From Chloroflexota bacterium (GTDB lineage: Bacteria; Chloroflexota; Dehalococcoidia; JACPEP01), in NCBI GenBank assembly GCA_016183425.1, contig JACPEP010000041.1:3704-67703 (forward strand): 64,000 nucleotides of DNA, given 5' to 3'. This document shows positions 4,343 to 33,840 of the stretch, piece by piece. A program made the position numbers and the translations under genes. Each line of letters opens with the position of its first letter. Within the stretch, counting starts at the first letter, position 1. The notes beneath the pieces were generated by a model. That model had not been told where the DNA came from. It searched no databases and worked only from the letters and a program-made list of their open reading frames with translations.

Positions 4343-4655
4343 GACCCGTATCTTTCGCTCCATATCCTTCCTCATCCCATCTGCTACTAGTCCCTTCTGC
4401 TTTGCCCAAGGGGATAGTTAAACCCGCCACTACGCCTGTCTTTAAGCTCTAGCACCCTCCAGGTACAACCTAAAATAGACCTCCTTTTTGTGAAAAATAT
4501 ATCAACTAGTGGATAGACAGGTACTAGTACTTACCCTAGCATGGAATTAGGTGATTAAACATGGAAAACAGGATGGCGAGGCAGCGGTTAATTAAGAAAG
4601 AATCATTCCTTCTGTCTCGCATCTTCGGGCCGCTAGTGGAAAAGGAGGTTCGGTC
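4343..4655 (+). promoter_or_regulatory. AT-richer intergenic region with repeated ACTAGT-centred palindromes (candidate operator sites)
   Basis: Motifs ctactagtccc, caactagtggat, ggtactagtactta, ccgctagtgg and ttgctagtgctgg occur within 330 bp. GC content is clearly below that of flanking genes. Confidence 0.25.
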
Positions 4656-4760
4656 ATGCCAGGCGTGGCGATATTGTTGCTAGTGCTGGTGGCTTTGGCG
4701 GGGGGGATTATGTATGGTATCCGGCTCCTCCTTAGGAGGCTCTACAAAGGTGCCCTTTAG
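4656..4760 (+). CDS. small hydrophobic peptide (34 aa, single predicted TM helix), hypothetical
   Basis: ATG at 4656 is preceded by a strong Shine-Dalgarno (aaaaggaggtt) 7 nt upstream. It encodes MPGVAILLLVLVALAGGIMYGIRLLLRRLYKGAL and is not in the ORF track because it is under 60 aa. Confidence 0.3.
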   Translation: MPGVAILLLVLVALAGGIMYGIRLLLRRLYKGAL

Positions 4761-4809
4761 TCAGGGAGGGCACTTAGACGGGGAACTCAAAAGGGGCCAA
4801 AGAGCAGGA

Positions 4810-5214
4810 ATGAAGGCGGCCAAGAACGTGGAAACGAAGGAAGAGCGCCAGGTGTTTATCCTTTTCAGCCACTCCTTAATGGCGGAAGGCCTGAACATTC
4901 TCCTTCGGGCCCACGATTTAAAGGTGGTGGGCGTGGACGCCCGCCAGGCCGACGCCGTGGAGCACGCCCAGCATCTCATGCGACCCCAAGACGTGATCAT
5001 CGTGGACGAAGGAGATATTGCTGTTCATCCCTCTATGAGCATCTTCCAGTTGTTCATGAAGCACCCTGACGTGACCGTGGTGGGCCTGAACGTTAAAAAC
5101 AACTCCATGGAGATATACCAAAGGGAGGTGAAAACCATGGAGCGTCTGGAGGATCTGCTGGGGATCCTCCAGTGTCCCAGCCGAAGCGGGGCCCAGATGC
5201 TTGCCGGGGAATGA
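4810..5214 (+). CDS. hypothetical protein with a degenerate receiver-like (pseudo-REC) fold
   Basis: Internal ATG at 4810 (MKAAKNVETKEERQVFILFSHSLMAEGLNILL...DVIIVDEGD...PDVTVVGLNVKNN). REC-like spacing is present, but the conserved acidic pocket is replaced by SH. The listed ORF start at 4714 overlaps the small peptide ORF. Confidence 0.4.
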   Translation: MKAAKNVETKEERQVFILFSHSLMAEGLNILLRAHDLKVVGVDARQADAVEHAQHLMRPQDVIIVDEGDIAVHPSMSIFQLFMKHPDVTVVGLNVKNNSMEIYQREVKTMERLEDLLGILQCPSRSGAQMLAGE

Positions 5215-5261
5215 AGATGACTAAGTCGAGGGAAGTCTGAAGCCTAGAGGGGAGTCGATCT

Positions 5262-5588
5262 ATGAAACGATACCTTTTCCTGGTGGTAGCCCTGGTTCTG
5301 GCAGCGGTCTTCGTCGTATTCAGCTACCGCCAAACCAGAGGCATGCCTGACTACGCCGCCCGCACCGGCGAGCCTTGTGCCACCTGCCATGTCAACCCCT
5401 CTGGAGGCGGGCCGAATACCGATCGCGGGCGGGCCTGGGTAGCGGCGGGCAAGCCGGACAAGGTGCCTGTTTTAGCGGCAACGCCTACTCCCACCTCAGC
5501 CCCTTCTCCGGCACCGGGAGAACCAAAGCCAACAACGCCACCGCCACCCCCGGAAACTGAGTACGGCGGGTGTGGCTACGACAAGTAG
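5262..5588 (+). CDS. membrane-anchored monoheme c-type cytochrome with a Pro/Thr-rich linker
   Basis: N-terminal TM helix and a single CxxCH motif (CATCH). The C-terminal tail PTPTSAPSPAPGEPKPTTPPPPPE is low complexity. Confidence 0.6.
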   Translation: MKRYLFLVVALVLAAVFVVFSYRQTRGMPDYAARTGEPCATCHVNPSGGGPNTDRGRAWVAAGKPDKVPVLAATPTPTSAPSPAPGEPKPTTPPPPPETEYGGCGYDK

Positions 5589-5639: not shown

Positions 5640-8024
5640 ATGTCTATGAACAGGCGGACATTCTTAAAGGCCTTGGGAGCCACGGGGGTCACGGCCACGG
5701 TGGCGGGCCAGTTCGTTATCAACCGCTCCACCGGCGAGGCGGGAGCGCCCCACGCTGCGGGCGTGGTTCGCAAGGGGGAGACTTGGGTTCCCACCGTTTG
5801 CTACCAATGCCCGGGGGGCTGCGGCATCCTGGCCCGGGTGGTAGAAGGCAAGGCAGTGAAGCTGGAGGGCAACCCCCAGCACCCCATCAATGAAAGGAGG
5901 CTATGCCCCAAGGGGCAATCTGCCCTCCAGATTCTCTACAACCCCGACCGCTTGCAGCACCCCCTACGCCGGGCGGGCGCCCGGGGGGAAGGACGCTGGC
6001 AGGAGATAACCTGGGAGGAGGCCATGGCCGAGGTAATCTCCCGTCTTAAGACCATCAGAGACCAGGGAGAGCCCCACACCGTGGCCATCATGCACGGGCG
6101 ATTGCGGGGTGAGATGGAAGGACTTATTCACCGCTTCCTGGAGGCCTATGGCAGCCCCAACGATATATCCTCCGCCAGCCTGGGTCGCCAGACGGCCAAG
6201 GTAGCTCACCTTCTTACCCAGGGTATCGAGGACCTCATGGCCTATGACCTGGAGAACGCCAACTACCTGCTGTCTTTCGGGGGCAGTCTTCTGGAGGCGG
6301 GGGGTCCCCCCATGCGGGTGGTGGGGGCCTATGGCCAGATTCGCCGCGGGCGGCCCAACCGGGCCAAGATTGTGACCGTCGATCCCCGCTTCTCCATAAC
6401 TGCCGCCAAGTCCGACGAGTGGGTTCCTATCGTGCCGGGCACCGATGCCGCTCTGGCCCTGGGCTTGGCCAACGCCATTATTCAGATGGGGGCCTACGAC
6501 AAGGACTTCGTGGCCAATTACACCTTCGGCTTTGAGGACTGGACTGACGAAGGGGGGCAGAAGCACAAGGGATTCAAGACCCTGGTCCTGGAGGAGTACC
6601 CGGCCAAGAAGGTATCCGAGATAACGGGAGTGCCGGTGGCCAACATCTCCCGCCTGGCCGCCGAGTTTGCCACCAACAAGCCCGCCCTGGCTATTAATCC
6701 AGACCGAGGCGCTCTTCACGCCAGCCTCGGCGGCTCCTATACCGGAGCCGCCATACACAGCCTCAACGCCCTGGTAGGCAACCTCGACCGGCCCGGAGGG
6801 GTGATGGTGCAGCGCTATCCACTCTGCGTTCCATGGCCAGACACCCAGATGGATGAAACAGCCCGGAAGGGCCTAAGGCAGCCGCGCATCGACGGAGCGG
6901 GGAGCAAGCGCTTTCCCCTGGCCAACTCCATTTACCAAACCGTGGCCCGAAACTCCTGGGAAGGCAACCCCTACCCCCTACGGGCACTCCTTCTTTACTA
7001 TACCAACCCGGTGTTCTCCAGCCCCCAGGGACAGGAGTTCGTCGCCGCCTTCCAAAAGATGGATTTCATCGTGGATTTTAGCCCCTTCTTCAGCGATTCT
7101 AACCAGTATGCCGATCTCATCCTGCCCGACCATACCTTCTTTGAGAGGTATGAGAACGACCTGCCTCCCGCGGGCACCGGCTATCCGGTGGTAGGGCTGC
7201 GCCAGCCGGTGGTGGAGCCTCTGTACAATACCCGCCATACGGGAGACGTGCTTCTCCAGGTGGCCCAGGGATTGGGAGGTGGCGTGGCCGGCTCCTTCCC
7301 CTGGAAAAACTTTGTGGAGATCCTCCAGTTCCGGCTGAGCAAGCTGGGGGTCTCCTGGGAGGAGCTGAGGAAGACGGGCGTGTGGGCCAAGCCTCTCTAC
7401 CCCTTCACCTCCCCCACGGACAGCCGATGGCACTCCGTGGTGGGCACGGACCGCCGCTATGCCCCCAAAGATGGCCGGTTTGATTTCTACATGAGGGAGC
7501 TAAAGGGCCTCTTTGAGAAAAAGGGCATCACCGAGGCCGATTTGGCGGGGATGAACATCTCGGCGCGCGGCGACCTGGTGTACCTGCCCCACTACGAGGC
7601 ACCCCACCGCACGGGAGATGCCACGGAATATCCTCTTCTCCTCAACACCTACAAGCTCATGACCCACGCCGAGGGCAAGGGAGGCAACGTGCCCGGGCTT
7701 CAGGAGATGTTGGGATTGCATGTGGGGGTCAAGTGGCAAACCTGGGCGGAGATCAACCCGCAAACGGCTCACAAGCTGGGCATTAAGGAAGGGGACATGG
7801 TTTGGGTGGAATCGCCCCAGGGACGGATCAAGGTACGGGCTAAGCTCTACGCTGGCGCTCGTCCGGACATGGTAAACATACCCTTCGAACAGGGACATGC
7901 TGCCGGGGGTCGGTGGGCACAGAGCCGGGGGGCTAATCCCAACACCATCATACCCTCGGTTACCGAGGCCTTGGCGGGAAGTGCAGCCTTTACCTCCTTT
8001 GGGGTGAAGGTATACAGAGCATAG
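5640..8024 (+). CDS. molybdopterin (Mo-bisPGD) oxidoreductase catalytic subunit, Psr/Phs/Ttr/DMSO-reductase family, TAT-exported
   Basis: Twin-arginine signal MSMNRRTFLKALGATGVTATVAG. N-terminal FeS0 cysteine motif CYQCPGGCG...C. Length 794 aa, typical of a CISM A subunit. Confidence 0.85.
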   Translation: MSMNRRTFLKALGATGVTATVAGQFVINRSTGEAGAPHAAGVVRKGETWVPTVCYQCPGGCGILARVVEGKAVKLEGNPQHPINERRLCPKGQSALQILYNPDRLQHPLRRAGARGEGRWQEITWEEAMAEVISRLKTIRDQGEPHTVAIMHGRLRGEMEGLIHRFLEAYGSPNDISSASLGRQTAKVAHLLTQGIEDLMAYDLENANYLLSFGGSLLEAGGPPMRVVGAYGQIRRGRPNRAKIVTVDPRFSITAAKSDEWVPIVPGTDAALALGLANAIIQMGAYDKDFVANYTFGFEDWTDEGGQKHKGFKTLVLEEYPAKKVSEITGVPVANISRLAAEFATNKPALAINPDRGALHASLGGSYTGAAIHSLNALVGNLDRPGGVMVQRYPLCVPWPDTQMDETARKGLRQPRIDGAGSKRFPLANSIYQTVARNSWEGNPYPLRALLLYYTNPVFSSPQGQEFVAAFQKMDFIVDFSPFFSDSNQYADLILPDHTFFERYENDLPPAGTGYPVVGLRQPVVEPLYNTRHTGDVLLQVAQGLGGGVAGSFPWKNFVEILQFRLSKLGVSWEELRKTGVWAKPLYPFTSPTDSRWHSVVGTDRRYAPKDGRFDFYMRELKGLFEKKGITEADLAGMNISARGDLVYLPHYEAPHRTGDATEYPLLLNTYKLMTHAEGKGGNVPGLQEMLGLHVGVKWQTWAEINPQTAHKLGIKEGDMVWVESPQGRIKVRAKLYAGARPDMVNIPFEQGHAAGGRWAQSRGANPNTIIPSVTEALAGSAAFTSFGVKVYRA

Positions 8025-26043: not shown

Positions 26044-26095
26044 TCCGCCTTTGGCGGACGTGTCCGCCTTTGGCGGATCAGCATGACATCTCCCT
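26044..26095. repeat. degenerate copy of the intergenic palindromic repeat family (tandem CCGCCTTTGGCGGA plus GGATCAGCATGAC)
   Basis: ccgcctttggcgga occurs twice, followed by ggatcagcatgacat. These share the core of the elements at 31441-31480 and 39100-39200. Confidence 0.4.
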
Positions 26096-26136: not shown

Positions 26137-27039
26137 TTAGGAGCGGGACACCAAAGGCAGGTCTATGTGATAGTTTTTCAGGATAGTTTGAATGGCCGCC
26201 GCCGAGCGGTCGTCGGGCTCTGTCAAGGGGAGGCGGGGCTTGCCCACCGGAAAGCCCACCGCGTTCACAGCGTACTTCACGGGTATGGGGTTGGAAAGGA
26301 TGAACATGGCGTTGAAGATGGGAAGGAGCCGACGGTGCAGGACGGCCGCCTCCTGCCACCTCCCTTCCAGAAAGCTGTCCATCATCTCCCGTATCTGGAG
26401 TCCCACCAGGTGAGAGGCAACGCCGATCACTCCATAGCCCCCTACAGAAAGGATGGGCAGGGTATCGCCGTCGTTGCCGCTATAGACCATGAAGCCTTGA
26501 GGGGTGCCATCGATAATGCGGGCGATCTGATCCAGGTTGCCGCTGGCCTCTTTAATGCCCACGATGTTTCTGATCTGGCCGAGACGGATCACCGTCTCGG
26601 CCGTCAGGTTAGTGCCGGTGCGGCTGGGAACGTTGTACATGAGGCAAGGAAGCTGAGTTCCCTGGGCGATGGCTTTAAAGTGCTGGTACAACCCCTCTGG
26701 AGTGGGCCGATTGTAGTAAGGAACCACCAAAAGAACGCCATCCACGCCGATAGCTTCCGCTTCCCGAGTCAGCTCCAGGCTCTCGGCAGTGCTATAGCTT
26801 CCCGTGCCCGCCACCACGGTGCCCTTGTCCCCTACCGCCTCCTTCACCTCCCCGATGAGGCGAAGCTTCTCCTCATGGGTAAGGGTTGGTGCCTCCCCCG
26901 TGGTGCCCACCACCACCAATCCGTGGCTCCCCGAATCCACTAAGGCCCGGGCCAGACGCCGGGCCTGGGGATAGTCTACCCGTCCCCCCTCATCGAAGGG
27001 AGTCACCATGGCCGTAAGCAAGCGCCCCAGCTCCATCAT
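26137..27039 (-). CDS. dapA: 4-hydroxy-tetrahydrodipicolinate synthase
   Basis: MMELGRLLTAMVTPFDEGGRVDYPQARRLA..., Schiff-base lysine region and the DapA/NAL fold pattern. Confidence 0.9.
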   Translation of the reverse strand: MMELGRLLTAMVTPFDEGGRVDYPQARRLARALVDSGSHGLVVVGTTGEAPTLTHEEKLRLIGEVKEAVGDKGTVVAGTGSYSTAESLELTREAEAIGVDGVLLVVPYYNRPTPEGLYQHFKAIAQGTQLPCLMYNVPSRTGTNLTAETVIRLGQIRNIVGIKEASGNLDQIARIIDGTPQGFMVYSGNDGDTLPILSVGGYGVIGVASHLVGLQIREMMDSFLEGRWQEAAVLHRRLLPIFNAMFILSNPIPVKYAVNAVGFPVGKPRLPLTEPDDRSAAAIQTILKNYHIDLPLVSRS

Positions 27040-27055
27040 AGCCGGCTCCTTTCAC

Positions 27056-27247
27056 TCAGTAACATCGAGTACAGCTTGGGGACCATCCAAGATTACTTTT
27101 AGCTGATTTAGCAGGTCCCTTCCCCAGAGGGGTGTACGGCTCTTCCCAGAGAACGGCACGGACAAACCTTTGCGTGCCCTCTTCAACGGCCAAGGTCACT
27201 GAAAACACAGGTGACTCTCTTACCTTGCCTTCAAACCCCCTGAGCAA
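27056..27247 (-). pseudogene. C-terminal remnant of a retropepsin-like aspartic protease (copy 1; catalytic N-terminal half missing)
   Basis: The 63-aa ORF LLRGFEGKVRESPVFSVTLAVEEG...RAVLWEEPY is about 80% identical to the C-terminal half of the intact protease at 27875-28255. The DSGA catalytic motif is missing. Confidence 0.6.
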
Positions 27248-27261
27248 ATCCTAATCACCCC

Positions 27262-27711
27262 TTAAGATAACTGTTTTCGTACCGCCTCCCGCCTCTCACA
27301 GAGAGCCTTGAGCCGGGAGTCCCATGATATTTGGGGGGTATGTTTGCCTGCCTCCCAACTGTTCACCGTCACCTGCTCGACCCCCAATAGCCGGGCAAAA
27401 TCCCCCTGGGATAGGCCCAGGTATTCTCTTAGCGCCTTGATTTCTTCTGGGGTCATCTTCACATCTCCTGCTGCTCTCTCGGGGAAGCGTTCCACCACCT
27501 CTTGCCCTTCGGTCAATCGGTCAACACTTGTACCCGGGGAGACCAGAGAGCTTCTCTGATGCGGTGACGACTGCCTAGGAGCGGCACTGAAAAGCCCTTT
27601 GCCTATTTCTAATTCCATGTTGGAGATGGTCCGCAAGAGCTTACCCAGGTCTATCAATTGTCTGACCAGGTTATGGAGACTAAATACATTCCTCGGCATA
27701 ATCCTATCCAA
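27262..27711 (-). CDS. partner protein, copy 1: conserved N-terminal segment fused to a C-terminal XRE-type HTH
   Basis: N-terminus LHNLVRQLIDLGKLLRTISNMELEIGKGLFSAAPRQSSP parallels that of the 28258-28911 protein. C-terminus MTPEEIKALREYLGLSQGDFARLLGVEQVTVNSWEAGKHTP is a Cro/C1-type HTH. Confidence 0.6.
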   Translation of the reverse strand: MDRIMPRNVFSLHNLVRQLIDLGKLLRTISNMELEIGKGLFSAAPRQSSPHQRSSLVSPGTSVDRLTEGQEVVERFPERAAGDVKMTPEEIKALREYLGLSQGDFARLLGVEQVTVNSWEAGKHTPQISWDSRLKALCERREAVRKQLS

Positions 27712-27717
27712 TTAGGT

Positions 27718-27775
27718 AAGATCGAAAACTACTCCAGAGCGGCTACGCATTCCATTTCGATGAGATAGTCCGGGC
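27718..27775 (-). pseudogene. duplicated 3'-end fragment of ridA (duplication scar)
   Basis: atcgaaaactactccagagcggctacgcattccatttcgatgagatagtccggg is nearly identical to 29005-29058, which encodes the ridA C-terminus ...DYLIEMECVAALE. Confidence 0.7.
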
Positions 27776-27860
27776 CAGACGCCGGGCCTGGGGGTAGTCC
27801 ACCCGCCCCTCTTCATCGAAGGGAGTCACCATGGCCGTAAGCAGCCTGCCCAGTTCTATC
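27776..27860 (-). pseudogene. duplicated 5'-end fragment of dapA (duplication scar)
   Basis: Minus-strand translation MIELGRLLTAMVTPFDEEGRVDYPQARRLAR. About 88% nucleotide identity to the dapA 5' end at 26941-27050. Confidence 0.7.
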
Positions 27861-27874
27861 ATAGCTGGCTCCTT

Positions 27875-28255
27875 TCACACCACAATATGAAGTACCCCTT
27901 GAAGGCCATCCAAGGTTATCTCTAGCTGATTTAGCAGGTCCCTTCCCAAGAGGGCATAAGTTTCTTGCCAGAGGACGGCACGAATAAACTTATGCTCGCC
28001 CTCTCCAGTGGCCAAGGTCACTGAAAACACTGGCGACTCTCTTACCTTGCCTTCAAACCCCCTGAGCAAGGCTGTATCAGCGCGGCGCATTTGAAGCTGC
28101 CTGGTCAAAGCGGAAGGTATGGCAGTAATGTCGGCTCCAGAGTCAACGAAGGCATTTACTGTAACTGGAGGCGAGGAAGAAAGGGGAACGCCTATCTTCA
28201 CCGGCAACACAGGGGCCGGAGGGTCAAAAGAGGCATTATAGGCATATGTGGCCAT
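27875..28255 (-). CDS. retropepsin-like (clan AA) aspartic protease, intact copy
   Basis: Catalytic motif VDSGADITAIP (D-S-G-A) in a protein of about 126 aa. The ATG at 28255 lies 2 nt after the stop of the upstream partner gene; the ORF-track start at 28327 overlaps that gene. Confidence 0.7.
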   Translation of the reverse strand: MATYAYNASFDPPAPVLPVKIGVPLSSSPPVTVNAFVDSGADITAIPSALTRQLQMRRADTALLRGFEGKVRESPVFSVTLATGEGEHKFIRAVLWQETYALLGRDLLNQLEITLDGLQGVLHIVV

Positions 28256-28257
28256 CT

Positions 28258-28911
28258 CTATGGCCTCCCTACGAGCCTGGGGGAAGGCATACTGACTACC
28301 CGAGGTTCCTCGACCTTGGGCATGCAAATGTCCCGATAGCCGAACTTACCGTAAACCCTTTCTGCCAGCCGGGAAAAGTTGGCATCCGAGTCCACCACTT
28401 GCCTGTTGAGTAGAGCGATATATCTGCCTTTGTATTCCGAAAGGAACTGGGCCAGATGCTCTTCGTAAAATTGGAGGTCATCCTCAAAAGAAGCTTGTTC
28501 CTCCTTCATAGCTGCTCTCTCGTGGAAGCGCTTCATCACCCCCTGCCCCTCTTCAAAGTCGAAAAGGGGCCGCAGGAGCCTGCCGATTATTTCTTCCTTT
28601 CTCGCCTTGCTGCTGGTCCGAATGGACATCCGCTCCGCCAGGTCCACCAACTGGGGAACAGAAAACTCATCGAGGCGCTCGTAGGCTTCCTCCTGGCTCA
28701 GATTCTTGATTTCCAGGGCCAGCTTCTCAACATCTGTATCTCGGAGGGACAAAAAGCTTCGACGGCGCGGTGACTTCTTCTTGGGTGCAGCACCCGAAAG
28801 CTCTTTGCCCGCTTTCAGTTCCGTGTTAGGGAGGGTCTGCAAGAGCTCGCCCAGCTCAATCAGTTGCCTGGCAAGGTCATGCAAGTGGGATATGCTTTCA
28901 GTGTCCTTCAA
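28258..28911 (-). CDS. partner protein, copy 2 (217 aa; shared N-terminal segment, unknown C-terminal domain), translationally coupled to the protease
   Basis: N-terminus HLHDLARQLIELGELLQTLPNTELKAGKELSGAAPKKKSP resembles copy 1. The C-terminus ...YIALLNRQVVDSDANFSRLAERVYGKFGYRDICMPKV resembles no family I can name. Confidence 0.6.
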   Translation of the reverse strand: MKDTESISHLHDLARQLIELGELLQTLPNTELKAGKELSGAAPKKKSPRRRSFLSLRDTDVEKLALEIKNLSQEEAYERLDEFSVPQLVDLAERMSIRTSSKARKEEIIGRLLRPLFDFEEGQGVMKRFHERAAMKEEQASFEDDLQFYEEHLAQFLSEYKGRYIALLNRQVVDSDANFSRLAERVYGKFGYRDICMPKVEEPRVVSMPSPRLVGRP

Positions 28912-29020
28912 AGTTTCACCACTTTTTCAAAGAACTCCTCAGCACATCTCTTGATTTGCTTCTCATAAGCTAGGTCTCTGGAGCCTATCAACCTCTTTCG
29001 CCCTCAATCAAGATCGAAAA

Positions 29021-29440
29021 CTACTCCAGAGCGGCTACGCATTCCATTTCGATGAGATAGTCCGGGTTGACCAGGCTTTTCACCACCACGGCGGTGCTGG
29101 CGGGGCGGGGCTCCGTAAAGTAGCGGTTGCGGATTTCGTACATCTTCGCCCGGTCCTCTAGCCGGGTGATGAAAGTGGTGATCTTGAGGACGTTGTCCAG
29201 ATGGCTCCCCGCCGCCTCCAGGATGGCCTTGATATTCTCCATAACCTGGATGGCCTGGGCCTCGAAGTCGCTTTGGCCCACCAGTTTGCCCTGGGGGTCC
29301 GTGGCCACCTGGCCGGAGACGAAGAGGAGGTTGCCAAACCTAACCCCCTGAGACAACGACTGAACCTGCCGCCAGCCCTGGGGTTGCACCGGTTTCCGGA
29401 GCATAGCAGTCACCTCCTCCGCCAGGTGGGGGCGTAGCAT
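29021..29440 (-). CDS. ridA: RidA/YjgF/L-PSP family reactive-intermediate deaminase
   Basis: ...FGNLLFVSGQVATDPQGKLVGQSDFEAQAIQVMENIKAILEAAGSHLDNVLKITTFI...PASTAVVVKSLV... is the classic RidA pattern. The true start may be the internal Met at about 29404. Confidence 0.85.
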   Translation of the reverse strand: MLRPHLAEEVTAMLRKPVQPQGWRQVQSLSQGVRFGNLLFVSGQVATDPQGKLVGQSDFEAQAIQVMENIKAILEAAGSHLDNVLKITTFITRLEDRAKMYEIRNRYFTEPRPASTAVVVKSLVNPDYLIEMECVAALE

Positions 29441-29502: not shown

Positions 29503-30510
29503 CTATAGCCACCCGCGCTGAAGCAAGGCCTCGGCAATCTGAACCGCGTTTAAGGCCGCCCCTTTGCGCAGGTTGTCGGCCACCACCCACATGGCCAAGC
29601 CCTGGGGATGGGAAGCGTCTTTCCTAATGCGACCCACAAAGACCTCGTCTTGACCGGCCACCGACCAGGGGTGGGGGTAGAGGCTGACCCGGGGGTCGTC
29701 CAGTACTCGTATTCCCGGTGCCTCCGACAGGATGATACGCGCCTCCTCCGTCTCCATGGGCCGGCTCAGCTCCAGGTGGATCGCCTCGCTGTGGCCTACG
29801 TAGACAGGCACCCGAACGCAGGTGGCAGACACGGCCAGATTCTCGCTGTGCAGGATTTTCCGTGTCTCATTCACCATCTTCCACTCCTCCCGAGTATACC
29901 CACTATCTAAGAAAGGCTCTATCTCGGGCAAAAGGTTGAAAGCTATCTGGTGCGGATACACATGGGGAATGACGCTCTTTCCTTCCAGCACATGTCTCGC
30001 CTGGGTGCTTAACTCCTCCAGGGCTACCACGCCGGTTCCTGACACCGATTGGTAGGTATCCACCACGATGCGCTTCACCGGATTGACCCGGTGCAGGGGA
30101 TTGACGGCCACCACCATCTGAATGGTGGAGCAGTTGGGGTTGGCGATAATCCTCTTGTGCCACCTCAGATCTTCCTCGTTCACCTCCGGCACCACCAGCG
30201 GCACCTGGGGGTCCATGCGGAAGGCAAAGCTGTTGTCGATGACTACCACCCCTTTTCGGGCCGCCACGGGAGCCCAGTGCTGGCTTACCTCCGCCCCGGC
30301 GCTGAAAAGGGCGATATCCACATCCTCGAAGGAGCGGGGACTCACCTCTTTGACCGCCAACTCTTTGTGGCCGAAGAGTATCTTTTTCCCCTCAGAGCGG
30401 TCGGAGGCGTACAGGGAGAGGGATGCCACGGGGAATTTCCGCTGCTGGAGCACCTTGACCATCTCTTGGCCGACCAGCCCCGTAGCACCGACAATGGCGA
30501 CCCGAAACAT
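29503..30510 (-). CDS. asd: aspartate-semialdehyde dehydrogenase
   Basis: N-terminus MFRVAIVGATGLVGQEMVKVL, an active-site Cys region and the C-terminal dimerisation domain. Length 335 aa. Confidence 0.9.
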   Translation of the reverse strand: MFRVAIVGATGLVGQEMVKVLQQRKFPVASLSLYASDRSEGKKILFGHKELAVKEVSPRSFEDVDIALFSAGAEVSQHWAPVAARKGVVVIDNSFAFRMDPQVPLVVPEVNEEDLRWHKRIIANPNCSTIQMVVAVNPLHRVNPVKRIVVDTYQSVSGTGVVALEELSTQARHVLEGKSVIPHVYPHQIAFNLLPEIEPFLDSGYTREEWKMVNETRKILHSENLAVSATCVRVPVYVGHSEAIHLELSRPMETEEARIILSEAPGIRVLDDPRVSLYPHPWSVAGQDEVFVGRIRKDASHPQGLAMWVVADNLRKGAALNAVQIAEALLQRGWL

Positions 30511-30527: not shown

Positions 30528-31328
30528 CTAAAGGCCCAGCAAGGCATCCAGGCTGGTAATCAACTCTTTACGCTTTACGACCTCTTTTATGGCCAGCATG
30601 ATGCCCGGAACGAAGCACTCCCGACTCAGGGCATCGTGGCGGATACGCAGCGTCTGACCCCGGGTGCCGAAGACCACCTCCTGGTGCGCCAAAAGCCCCG
30701 GCAGGCGAAGGCTGTGGATGGGGATGCCCTCCTTCAGGCCACCCCGGGTGCTCGGGATGGTTTCTTTTTGAACTGAGGCCCACTGGAAGGCAGAGCCCCG
30801 GCTCCGGGCCATCTCCTGGGCAGTGAAAAGGGCGGTGCCGGAGGGCGCATCCAACTTCTGCTCGTGGTGCATCTCCACAATCTCCGCATAGTCAAAATAG
30901 CGGGCGGCGATGCGGGCCAGATAGACCATGATTACCGCCCCCACGGCGAAGTTGGGCGCCACCACAACCCCTATCTGATGACGTCGACACAGCTCCCCAA
31001 TTTCCTCCAGGTTCTCCTGGGCCAGACCGGTAGTGCCCACCACCACCGCCACCCCATTGCGGGCACAGATGCGCACCGCGGGCATGGTGGCCTCAGCGTG
31101 GCTGAAATCCACCATCACCTGGGGACGAGTGCGTTGGATGATAGACTCCAGGTCCGTGGACAGGGGGATGAGCCCAGAGCCATCGGGTAGAGAAAGATAG
31201 TCCTCTCCCATCCGCCGCTCCACCGCCCCTACCGGCTCCATCTCCGGCTCCTGGCACAAGGCAGCCAGCACCTCCCGCCCCATCTTTCCGGAGGCACCGT
31301 GCACCACCACCTTTATGGGCTGCATCAT
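30528..31328 (-). CDS. dapB: 4-hydroxy-tetrahydrodipicolinate reductase
   Basis: VVVHGASGKMGREVLAAL NAD(P)-binding N-terminus and the DapB C-terminal domain (EIVEMHHEQKLDAPSGTA). Confidence 0.9.
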   Translation of the reverse strand: MMQPIKVVVHGASGKMGREVLAALCQEPEMEPVGAVERRMGEDYLSLPDGSGLIPLSTDLESIIQRTRPQVMVDFSHAEATMPAVRICARNGVAVVVGTTGLAQENLEEIGELCRRHQIGVVVAPNFAVGAVIMVYLARIAARYFDYAEIVEMHHEQKLDAPSGTALFTAQEMARSRGSAFQWASVQKETIPSTRGGLKEGIPIHSLRLPGLLAHQEVVFGTRGQTLRIRHDALSRECFVPGIMLAIKEVVKRKELITSLDALLGL

Positions 31329-31539: not shown

Positions 31540-33840
31540 TTATGTATGCCCACCCCTTCCCCGGTCCTCGGGGCTCCATCTCCTATCTCCGGGATGGCGC
31601 TGAGGAGGTGGTGTTCGAGACTCGGAACTGCCATAGCGCCGCCCTTCGGGCCGACTGTCGGGCCGACCTAAAGGCGGGGCGAAGCGGCCGGGGCGCGGCT
31701 CCGGCGGGCGTCGGGGGGGGTAGGGGGGTTCACGCCCCTCTCCTGGGGGTCGCGCCACCCCGGCCTCCTGCAGAAGAGCCCGTCGAGACAGGTTGATGCG
31801 CCCCATACGGTCGATCTCGGTGACCGTCACCGTTACCTCATCCCCTATCTGGACCTCGTCCTCCACCCGAGCCACTCGGTAGTCGGCCAGCTCGCTGATA
31901 TGAACCAGCCCCTCTTTGCCCGGAAGGATCTCCACGAAGGCGCCAAAGCCTGTGATCCGGGTCACCCTTCCCGTATAGATACCACCCACCTCCACGTCCC
32001 GGGTCAGGCCCTCGATGAGCTTAATGGCACGCTGAGCCGCCTCCTCGCTGGTTGAGCCAATGATGACGGTGCCATCGTCCTCCACGTCCAGGGTCACCTT
32101 GGTCTCCTCGGTGATAGAACGAATGGTCTTACCTCCGGGGCCGATGACGTACCTTATCTTATCGGGGCTGATGCTAATCTTGATCATTCTGGGGGCGTAG
32201 CGGCTTAGTTGGGGCCGGCTGGCGCTAATGGTCTCCGCCATCTTCTCCAGAATGTAGAGGCGTCCTTCCCGGGCTCGCTCCAGGGCCTCTTTTAGCACCT
32301 CGTGGCTTATGCCCTTGATCTTGACATCCATCTGGAGGGCCGTTATCCCCTGGGCGGTGCCCGCCACCTTAAAGTCCATATCGCCCAGGGCATCCTCCAT
32401 GCCCTCGATGTCGGTGAGGATGGCGTAGCGGCCGTTCTTGTCCATGGTCAGGCCCATGGCCACCCCGGCTACAGGCGACTTGATAGGCACGCCCGCGTCC
32501 ATGAGGGCCAGGGAGCTGCCACATACGCTTCCCATTGATGTGCTGCCGTTTGAGCTGAGAACCTCCGATACCAGGCGTATGGTGTAGGGGAAGTCCTCCT
32601 CACTGGGAATAACAGGGGCCAGGGCCCGCTCCGCCAGAGCGCCATGGCCGATCTCTCGCCGCCCGGTGGAGCCCATGCGCCTCACCTCCCCCGTACTGAA
32701 GGGGGGGAAGTTGTAGTGGTGCATGAAGCGCTTGCTCTCCTCCGGAGTCAGCCCATCGATGATCTGCTTCTCACCCACAGAGCCCAGGGTGGCGATGGAC
32801 AGTACCTGAGTTTGCCCACGGGTGAACAAACCAGAGCCGTGGGTGCGGGGAAGGGCGCCCACTTCACAGGTGATGGGGCGAATGTCCGTGTAGCCACGCC
32901 CATCGGAGCGGAGACCCTTATCAAAGATGCGCCGCCGCACGTGAGCCTTCAGCGCTGTCTCAAAGGCGGCCACCACTTCCGCCGTCGGATAGCGCTCTGC
33001 CAGCCTCTCCGTCAGCTCCCGCCGGAGACCGTCTATAAGGGCATCCCGCTGGCTGCGCTGGCTCCACGGGAAGTCCTCTGACAATCGGCTCTGAACCTCT
33101 GCCTCTACATCCTTTTCCAGGTCTGGGTCCAACTGGGATGGCGCAAACTCATCCCGGACGGGGTTGACCTGCTGAACCAGCGCCTCCTGAAGGTTCATAA
33201 TCTCTTGGTTGGCTTCCTGACCAAATCGGAGGGCCTCCCGTACCATGTCCTCGGGCATCTCCTTGACCCCCGCCTCCACCATCACCACCGCCTCCCGGGT
33301 GCTGGTAACCACCAGGTCCAGCAGGCTGTCCGTCAACTGGCTGAAAGTGGGGTTCAACACAAACTGCCCATCTATGTACCCCACACGAACGGCACTCACC
33401 GGGCCACCGAAGGGAATGCCGGAAAGCATTAGGGCCGTAGAGGCACCCACGATGGCCAAGACATCGGGATCGTTCTCCTGGTCCGCGGAGAGGGTGGTAA
33501 TAACCACCTGAATGTCCTTGTAGTAACCTTTGGGAAAGAGGGGACGGATAGACCTGTCCGTCAGGCGCATCACCAGGATGGCATCGCTGCTGGGCCGGCC
33601 CTCCCGGCGGAAAAAACCGCCGGGGATTTTCCCGGCGGCATAGAGGCGTTCCTCATAATCCACAGTAAGGGGCAGAAAGTCGATCCTCTCTTGACGCTCA
33701 GCGCCGACGCAGGCAGTGACCAGCACTATGGTATCCCCATAACGCACCGTGACCGCTCCCTGGGCCTGTCCCGCCAGGCGGCCACTTTCTATGCGCAAAC
33801 TCCGCTCCCCCACTTTCCCCTCTACACTATACTCTGCCAC
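31540..33840 (-). CDS. pnp: polynucleotide phosphorylase with a C-terminal Arg/Pro-rich low-complexity extension
   Basis: Two RNase PH domains followed by KH and S1 domains (GGIYTGRVTRITGFGAFVEI). The roughly 70-aa tail is PPGEGREPPYPPRRPPEPRPGRFAPPLGRPDSRPEGRRYG.... Confidence 0.95.
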   Translation of the reverse strand: MAEYSVEGKVGERSLRIESGRLAGQAQGAVTVRYGDTIVLVTACVGAERQERIDFLPLTVDYEERLYAAGKIPGGFFRREGRPSSDAILVMRLTDRSIRPLFPKGYYKDIQVVITTLSADQENDPDVLAIVGASTALMLSGIPFGGPVSAVRVGYIDGQFVLNPTFSQLTDSLLDLVVTSTREAVVMVEAGVKEMPEDMVREALRFGQEANQEIMNLQEALVQQVNPVRDEFAPSQLDPDLEKDVEAEVQSRLSEDFPWSQRSQRDALIDGLRRELTERLAERYPTAEVVAAFETALKAHVRRRIFDKGLRSDGRGYTDIRPITCEVGALPRTHGSGLFTRGQTQVLSIATLGSVGEKQIIDGLTPEESKRFMHHYNFPPFSTGEVRRMGSTGRREIGHGALAERALAPVIPSEEDFPYTIRLVSEVLSSNGSTSMGSVCGSSLALMDAGVPIKSPVAGVAMGLTMDKNGRYAILTDIEGMEDALGDMDFKVAGTAQGITALQMDVKIKGISHEVLKEALERAREGRLYILEKMAETISASRPQLSRYAPRMIKISISPDKIRYVIGPGGKTIRSITEETKVTLDVEDDGTVIIGSTSEEAAQRAIKLIEGLTRDVEVGGIYTGRVTRITGFGAFVEILPGKEGLVHISELADYRVARVEDEVQIGDEVTVTVTEIDRMGRINLSRRALLQEAGVARPPGEGREPPYPPRRPPEPRPGRFAPPLGRPDSRPEGRRYGSSESRTPPPQRHPGDRRWSPEDRGRGGHT

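Follow-up and report, generated by a model that had tools for sequence, protein, structure and literature searches.

Retropepsins such as the proteases of HTLV-1 and HIV, Ddi1, APRc of Rickettsia and enzymes of Pseudomonas are single-lobe proteins of ~120 amino acids that carry D-S/T-G-A and G-R-D/N motifs. APRc is embedded in the membrane. The retropepsin-like enzymes of Pseudomonas are described as secreted (PMC4140852, PMC11957051). The locus described here encodes a protease with the same single-lobe domain and motifs, and lies in a 64,000-nucleotide (nt) stretch of DNA, the window, from a Chloroflexota bacterium (Dehalococcoidia, JACPEP01; assembly GCA_016183425.1, contig JACPEP010000041.1, positions 3,704 to 67,703 of the forward strand). 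Unlike the enzymes named above, this protease has an obligate partner gene (P2 for the intact copy), the product of which carries a DUF5678-like domain, and a conserved N-terminal FDPPAP motif. Next to this two-gene cassette lie the remains of a second copy, and the arrangement as a whole resembles the outcome of microhomology-mediated, RecA-independent tandem duplication followed by pseudogenization: the unit is repeated head to tail, the junction has 5 nt of microhomology, relatives have a single copy, and one of the two copies is degraded. It differs from such cases in that divergence along the unit is uneven (0, 16 and 31%) and in that the degraded copy has gained a foreign gene for a helix-turn-helix (HTH) protein.

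All genes of the locus lie on the minus strand, and in gene orientation their order is ridA-P2-protease-dapA'|'ridA-P1-protease'-dapA. Intact ridA (29021-29440; RidA/YjgF family, Pfam Ribonuc_L-PSP 6.7e-31) is followed by an AT-rich leader (28912-29020; GC 42%), the first 11 nt of which belong to a 57-nt repeat, by P2 (28258-28911; 217 amino acids) and by the intact protease (27875-28255; 126 amino acids from its ATG). Next come a scar of the dapA 5' end (dapA', 27770-27862), which comprises the first ~30 codons and is preceded by the dapA ribosome-binding site, and a scar of the ridA 3' end (27718-27774); the duplication junction between them, a CCCGG microhomology at 27770-27774 where two repeats overlap, can be read directly from the sequence. 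The degraded copy (copy 1) continues with a 149-amino-acid open reading frame (ORF; 27262-27711), in which the remnant of a partner N-terminus (27457-27711), recognized by its homology to that of P2, stands in frame with the HTH gene, and with a protease remnant (27056-27247) that corresponds to about residues 58-126 of the intact enzyme. Intact dapA (26137-27039; 300 amino acids, Pfam DHDPS 3.1e-94) closes the series. An earlier reading made from the sequence alone, hereafter the sequence-only reading, had described this succession of dapA, remnants, scars, protease, partner and ridA, and it is present as described, except that dapA' extends to 27862 rather than to 27860.

The repeat formed by 26947-27247 and 27770-28069 is 84% identical (246/293 positions); it spans nt 1-93 of dapA together with the ribosome-binding site of the intergenic gap and the protease gene's 3' half. 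The other repeat, 27718-27774 against 29010-29066, is identical at 57/57 positions; here the 3' end of ridA recurs, with 43 nt of coding sequence, the stop codon and a further 11 nt beyond it. At the junction, nt 89-93 of dapA (codon ~30) meet the final 43 nt of ridA, CCCGG being common to both. Both copies retain the same elements in the same order: ridA 3' end, partner N-terminus, an EGQ..ERAA segment, protease 3' half, ribosome-binding site and dapA 5' end. The scars align with their parent genes well beyond chance, as the sequence-only reading had expected, with tblastn matches within the window of 88% over 33 amino acids (E=1.4e-13) for dapA' and E=6e-5 for the ridA scar. That reading had put both scars at 85-90% identity; this is correct for dapA' (82/93 nt, 87-88%) and too low for the ridA scar, which is 100% identical. 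The dapA' scar retains the ribosome-binding site and ATG of dapA and thereby begins a 39-codon ORF (MIELGRLLTAMVTPFDEEGRVDYPQARRLARTISSKWNA; 27741-27862, minus strand) that crosses the junction and continues within the ridA scar in another frame; this ORF is likely to be translated as a by-product, with no suggested function.

The dapA gene of the window is closest to those of metagenome-assembled genomes (MAGs) of Dehalococcoidia (Chloroflexota), with 59-70% amino acid identity (L001-L025, from a species-representative genome set). More than 20 related Dehalococcoidia have the order pnp-dapB-asd-dapA, with asd and dapA ~25 nt apart and with neither ridA nor the module at this site. A single module between asd and dapA was found with the protease search in three metagenome contigs, L081 (dapB-asd-partner of 109 amino acids-protease-dapA), L082 (asd-ParA-like ORF-partner of 208 amino acids-protease, 76% identical-dapA) and L083 (pnp-dapB-Asd::DUF5678 fusion-protease, 43%-three other genes-dapA). 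Within the window, dapA' is 88% identical to dapA and 77% identical to its counterparts in L081 and L082, and identity in the protease 3' half is 82.6% between the two copies, against 70-74% in comparisons with L082. Since the copies are sisters and the relatives have a single copy at the site, the in-situ tandem duplication with breakpoints in dapA and ridA that the sequence-only reading had proposed is supported by these comparisons. With L082 and L081 as outgroups, 18 lineage-specific changes are assigned to the remnant and 10 to the intact copy; a longer remnant branch is expected if the remnant was released from constraint. Synonymous divergence (dS) between the copies is about 0.5-0.9, in keeping with the earlier statement that the event is not recent, and the duplication therefore goes back much of the way to the divergence from L082.

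Compared with the intact copy (copy 2), copy 1 is missing ~90 nt of the leader, and its partner gene has an in-frame deletion of 165 nt relative to P2. In addition, a 441-nt stretch of copy 2 (28070-28510), which codes for the DUF5678 domain and for ~57 N-terminal residues of the protease, among them the catalytic Asp, is swapped for an unrelated 222-nt block (27248-27469), across which alignment of the copies reveals no homology to copy 2. This block consists of an AGGAG Shine-Dalgarno sequence located 8 nt upstream of an ATG at 27456, the gene for a 64-amino-acid XRE/MqsA-like HTH protein (27262-27456) and a further 14 nt. The HTH protein scores 33.1 bits with HTH_31 and 32.1 bits with HTH_3, both above the Pfam cut-offs; TIGR03830 is matched at 1.4e-11 over profile positions 61-123 only, with a score of 44.3 below the cut-off of 61.8, and the N-terminal zinc-ribbon part of MqsA is absent. 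The gene product is an XRE-type HTH protein rather than a full MqsA. A 64-residue database protein, P0075, is 100% identical to residues 86-149 of the 149-amino-acid ORF. An exhaustive HMMER search of 1.84 billion representative proteins with the whole ORF returned matches to the HTH domain only, together with this 64-residue self-match, and none to the partner-remnant part; a word-based homologue search with the same ORF returned nothing. Because the HTH gene is known as a standalone protein and the N-terminal part is unmatched, the ORF that had been read as an HTH-containing partner copy is a chimera, in which the N-terminal remnant of a partner stands by chance in frame with a small HTH gene. 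The remnant is 48-52% identical to the P2 N-terminus at the amino acid level and 69% at the nucleotide level (113/164). A separate origin of the partner N-terminus was considered on account of this divergence and rejected, as every lineage shows fast evolution in this region and P1 has ancestral states in common with L082. The protease remnant, which lacks the catalytic Asp, is 82% identical in nucleotides to 27878-28069; a +1 frameshift around 27130-27137 splits its tblastn match within the window into two frames (71% and 65%). The decay of copy 1 noted in the sequence-only reading is thus apparent as deletion and frameshift, whereas the parts for DUF5678 and for the catalytic half of its protease were not simply eroded but replaced by the HTH gene.

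The same reading had regarded the module as a foreign insertion into a dapB-asd-ridA-dapA operon. Its GC content is indeed lower than that of the flanking genes (54.1% for P2 and 52.2% for the protease, against 60-62%), close to the value of about 52% given before. However, the operon in relatives is pnp-dapB-asd-dapA: the asd-dapA interval lacks ridA in all relatives listed, and no ridA match was found in the 83 loci compared. At this site ridA appears to be confined to this genome, as a lineage-specific newcomer. In a tree of the protease and the partner domain, by contrast, the modules linked to asd fall into a single clade, ((window,L082),L081),L083, and in the asd and dapA trees module-bearing and module-less genomes are found in both major host clades. 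Module dS (0.85-1.1) is similar to that of the flanking asd and dapA genes (1.1-1.2), and the module genes, with a ratio of non-synonymous to synonymous divergence (dN/dS) of 0.16-0.21, are under purifying selection. Taken together, the single clade, the flank-like dS and the purifying selection argue that the module is not a recent foreign insert, and its history is best read as one old insertion between asd and dapA, followed by vertical descent and many losses.

Other insertions are seen around these genes. In L082, a 130-amino-acid ParA/CbiA-like ORF (304-696; N-terminal P-loop part only, GC 49%) lies between asd and the partner gene and fills the slot held by ridA in the window, so that the position just downstream of asd varies between lineages. 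Inserts of 0.9-1.5 kb that are lineage-specific are present at other gene junctions of the operon, between dapB and asd in L008, L010, L012, L018 and L054 and between asd and dapA in L014, in which a 480-amino-acid ORF (5812-7254) lies; the operon thus tolerates insertions where genes adjoin.

The assignment of the intact gene as a retropepsin-like protease, which the sequence-only reading had already made together with the recognition of a partner gene, is supported by the Pfam families RVP (32.6 bits, cut-off 20.7) and gag-asp_proteas (32.2 bits, cut-off 28.2); with TIGR03698 the score is 20.7 against a cut-off of 57.35. A profile of the protease family matches HTLV-1 protease at 1.6e-7 and Ddi1 at 1e-6. 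The protein has the motifs VDSGAD and LLGRDLLNQL, and in the family alignment D38 and D42 of the former are invariant and G40 and A41 are present in at least 90% of sequences, while L102, G104, R105 and D106 of LLGRD are invariant. Translation from an alternative TTG start would give 150 amino acids, with the ORF extending to 28327. Pairwise dN/dS against L082 and L081 is 0.16-0.20. The sole identical database protein comes from a 79-kb NCBI contig labeled 'MAG: Chloroflexi bacterium'; exact-sequence look-ups of the window protease, with both start codons, and of dapA returned no contig.

The stop codon of P2 lies 2 nt ahead of the protease ATG. Its product consists of a helical N-terminal extension and a C-terminal DUF5678-like domain, the match to DUF5678 (PF18929) being weak (21.7 bits, below the cut-off of 23.2). 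Homologous partners exceed this cut-off (27.6 in L083, 28.4 in L084 and 31.5 in L085), and DUF5678 is detected at E<=0.01 in 56 of 58 aligned partner relatives. In the AlphaFold2 model of P2, the region of residues ~135-210 is predicted with a local distance difference test score (pLDDT) >94. Along its entire length P2 shares 70% identity with the partner in L082, with a dN/dS of 0.21, and conservation among partners resides in the C-terminal domain and tail (..MP.V....SPRL..). A search of PDB sequences with the DUF5678 profile gave nothing significant, and no solved structure resembling the DUF5678 model was found.

A scan of metagenomes with the protease profile yielded 80 loci. In 76 of these, a DUF5678-type ORF ends 0-60 nt upstream of the protease, and in the other four the protease lies at a contig edge; the pairing of DUF5678 partner and retropepsin is therefore obligate in 76/76 informative loci. 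The N-termini of the partners across the family include FitA-like ribbon-helix-helix (RHH), Phd/YefM, HicB-like and Rv0623-like antitoxin domains, and such N-termini, joined to a DUF5678 C-terminus and encoded upstream of an effector, constitute a type II antitoxin-like architecture, in which DNA is bound by the N-terminal and the partner by the C-terminal part. The cassette is similar to type II toxin-antitoxin systems (Phd/Doc, FitAB, HicAB, MqsRA) in its pair of small genes that run in the same direction, with stop and start codons that adjoin or overlap, in the combination of an antitoxin-type N-terminus (RHH, Phd/YefM or HicB-like) with a partner-specific C-terminus in many upstream proteins of the family, and in strict pairing in many genomic contexts. 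By contrast, the downstream protein is a retropepsin-like aspartic protease, to our knowledge not a known toxin family, P2 of the window has no detectable DNA-binding domain, and the window pair is syntenic in a biosynthetic operon and apparently vertical, with no plasmid or phage copies. On the reading that we consider most likely, the cassette would be a type II toxin-antitoxin-like or protease-regulator pair, in which DUF5678 would bind and control a homodimeric protease. Two partner-protease pairs ~4 kb apart were seen in L157 (4564-5366 and 9222-10035), and in L143 one clear pair is accompanied by two weak extra protease-profile matches (E 5e-8 and 3e-4), among 397-678, 4503-5360 and 5911-6210; the window may therefore not be alone in having several cassette copies in one region.

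In several carriers, the gene that immediately precedes the protease gene encodes a protein with DUF5678 joined in frame to its C-terminus. Such fusions involve Asd (L083:4666-5997; L060:117-824, a retained fusion remnant; P0012), FtsZ (L084:2-1213; L089:2649-3902; L090:2-601; L092:3739-4992; P0064), dCTP deaminase (DCD; L091:4162-4992) and TIR (L165:728-1456). The Asd, FtsZ and dCTP deaminase fusions belong to the clade of the window's module and its sister clade, and the TIR fusion lies elsewhere in the tree. Several fusions occur in more than one diverged contig, which makes sequencing errors unlikely as their source. The fusions suggest that the protease may act on proteins tagged with DUF5678, by cleavage or by control of them; on a speculative reading, those to housekeeping proteins would point to polyprotein-like cleavage or protease-gated control of essential enzymes. 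As an analogy only, retroviral Gag-Pro processing comes to mind, in that DUF5678, which the protease may cut off, is fused to the preceding protein directly upstream of the protease; unlike in Gag-Pro, the protease of the cassette is a separate ORF. The FtsZ and DCD fusion loci L089, L091 and L092 have DUF763, PAC2 and RNA 3'-phosphate cyclase genes among their neighbors, which are typical of archaea; if this holds for the neighbors seen here, the clade that is sister to the window's module may belong to archaea.

An account that combines an old cassette, its in-situ duplication, the inactivation of copy 1 and the function proposed above appears probable to us as a whole. The two-gene cassette, in which the partner gene is tightly coupled to the protease gene downstream of it, would have resided between asd and dapA since an early ancestor of this group of Dehalococcoidia and would have been lost in many lineages. 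In the lineage of this genome, ridA would already have been placed between asd and the cassette when illegitimate recombination at the CCCGG microhomology, with breakpoints at codons 30-31 of dapA and 43 nt before the stop of ridA, produced a head-to-tail duplication of ~1.29 kb and thereby ridA-P2-protease-dapA'|'ridA-partner-protease-dapA. The upstream copy would then have been kept intact by purifying selection. The downstream copy would have been inactivated by loss of its leader, by in-frame deletion of 165 nt from the partner gene, by replacement of 441 nt (DUF5678 and the catalytic half of the protease) with the 222-nt block that carries the HTH gene, and by the +1 frameshift in what remained of the protease.

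A number of observations weigh against this account. Identity along the duplicated unit is uneven, with 0/57 differences in the ridA scar, 47/293 in the dapA'/protease block and 51/164 in the partner N-terminus (0%, 16% and 31%; Fisher p about 2e-4 per contrast). The probability of no change in 57 nt at 16% divergence is about 5e-5, and a rough estimate that counts changes on the remnant branch only is still <0.01. As the perfect ridA repeat stands beside a block with 16% divergence, uniform decay from a single event does not fit, and one duplication with clock-like decay does not explain the uneven divergence. The high divergence of the partner N-terminus can be explained by fast evolution of this region in all lineages, as judged from the alignments. 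To account for the 57/57 identity, one has to assume gene conversion, homogenization during assembly or a junction that arose after the duplication, as when a larger initial duplication was later trimmed by a CCCGG-mediated deletion. Moreover, the differences between dapA' and dapA comprise 9 synonymous and 2 non-synonymous changes (dN/dS 0.10). This synonymous bias exceeds what is expected for a neutral fragment and hints that dapA' spent part of its history inside a functional dapA; it is suggestive only, as the numbers are small and a GC-to-AT bias can contribute. In every lineage, the module has a much lower GC content at third codon positions than the genes around it, an unusual state for a resident of such great age. 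With regard to function, no DNA-binding domain was detected in P2 beyond a weak Rho_N-like match, PADLOC gave no meaningful match and none of its models fits, the protease had no match on plasmids or phages, and neither literature on DUF5678 or on retropepsin/antitoxin pairs nor experimental work on the pair was found.

Some of these points would be accommodated if the intact copy (leader-P2-protease-dapA') had been imported from a diverged relative with a ridA-module-dapA arrangement into a genome whose own module was already degenerate, either through homology-facilitated illegitimate recombination or because a circle had integrated via the ridA 3' end. Heterogeneous divergence along the unit (0%, 16% and 31%) would then be expected, the synonymous bias (dN/dS 0.10) is of the kind seen between two functional orthologues, and dapA' holds more ancestral states than the resident dapA (3 versus 6 assigned changes). 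The polarized counts are, however, too small for significance, and the bias was rejected as decisive proof of a foreign donor: once polarized with L081 and L082, only 3-5 changes remain on the fragment branch, 4/5 of the candidates being G-to-A. No donor-type sequence was found, both copies are nearer to each other than to any relative found, and the remnant has the longer branch, as expected for relaxation in situ. Import would also have given differing ridA 3' ends and leaves the 57/57 identity just as unexplained; we regard it as unlikely.

The arrangement might instead be an artefact of assembly, if a MAG contig had joined two strain haplotypes of the locus via the 57-nt repeat, or bubble collapsing might have created the 57-nt identity alone. 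An exact repeat of 57 nt is near the maximum k-mer sizes in common use, which would favor such an error, as would the fact that the only identical database protease comes from the 'MAG: Chloroflexi bacterium' contig of NCBI. However, the sequence common to dapA' and the ridA scar at their junction is only 5 nt, so that a k-mer overlap cannot create the junction and reads must contain it, and, with 16-31% divergence and large indels between them, the copies are too different to be collapsed strain variants; an artefact of this kind seems to us quite improbable. Finally, the two partner ORFs have unrelated C-terminal domains, as would follow from independent side-by-side insertion of two modules whose partners were a DUF5678 and an HTH protein, respectively. 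Independent insertion is hardly credible, given that the dapA 5' and ridA 3' scars lie exactly where a tandem duplication predicts them, that the partner N-termini, the EGQ..ERAA segments and the protease 3' halves are homologous and in the same order, and that the architecture of a partner N-terminus with an HTH domain is absent among the 1.84 billion representatives. In-situ duplication of an old cassette thus continues to be the preferred reading.

The remainder of the operon lies upstream of ridA, with asd at 29503-30510 and dapB at 30528-31328 (both identified with Pfam and on the minus strand), preceded by the PNPase ORF (pnp, 31540-33840, minus strand); the Lon gene is next after dapA in gene order. 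The C-terminus of PNPase (31540-31800) is a Pro/Arg/Gly-rich low-complexity tail of ~70 residues with a local GC content of 64-70%. In the dapA-lon intergenic region, ~60-90 nt past the dapA stop, two neighboring copies of the 15-nt palindrome TCCGCCTTTGGCGGA are present at 26044-26077, with starts 19 nt apart and no T-run after them; the pair could form hairpins that stabilize or terminate the transcript, or could be a protein-binding site. No Rfam family matched anywhere in the window at gathering thresholds, and no useful site in a promoter and terminator scan exceeded shuffled expectation.

The duplication itself is ordinary, a textbook case of an old microhomology-mediated event with one copy pseudogenized. 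Its value is mainly for annotation, in that the 149-amino-acid 'partner copy 1' is chimeric and the fragments of dapA and ridA are to be read as scars. Of more use is the finding on the cassette: a putatively cytosolic retropepsin-like protease strictly paired with a DUF5678 protein. We suggest, tentatively and with considerable doubt, that DUF5678 and retropepsin pairs may represent a widespread uncharacterized prokaryotic system, in which the protease would be either the effector of a new toxin-antitoxin-like class or the processor or regulator of a DUF5678-bearing protein. Control of fused enzymes by the protease, if true, would explain the long attachment of the cassette to asd. Should the pair turn out to act in processing or as a toxin-antitoxin system based on a protease, a new type of effector would be added and DUF5678 would gain a function.

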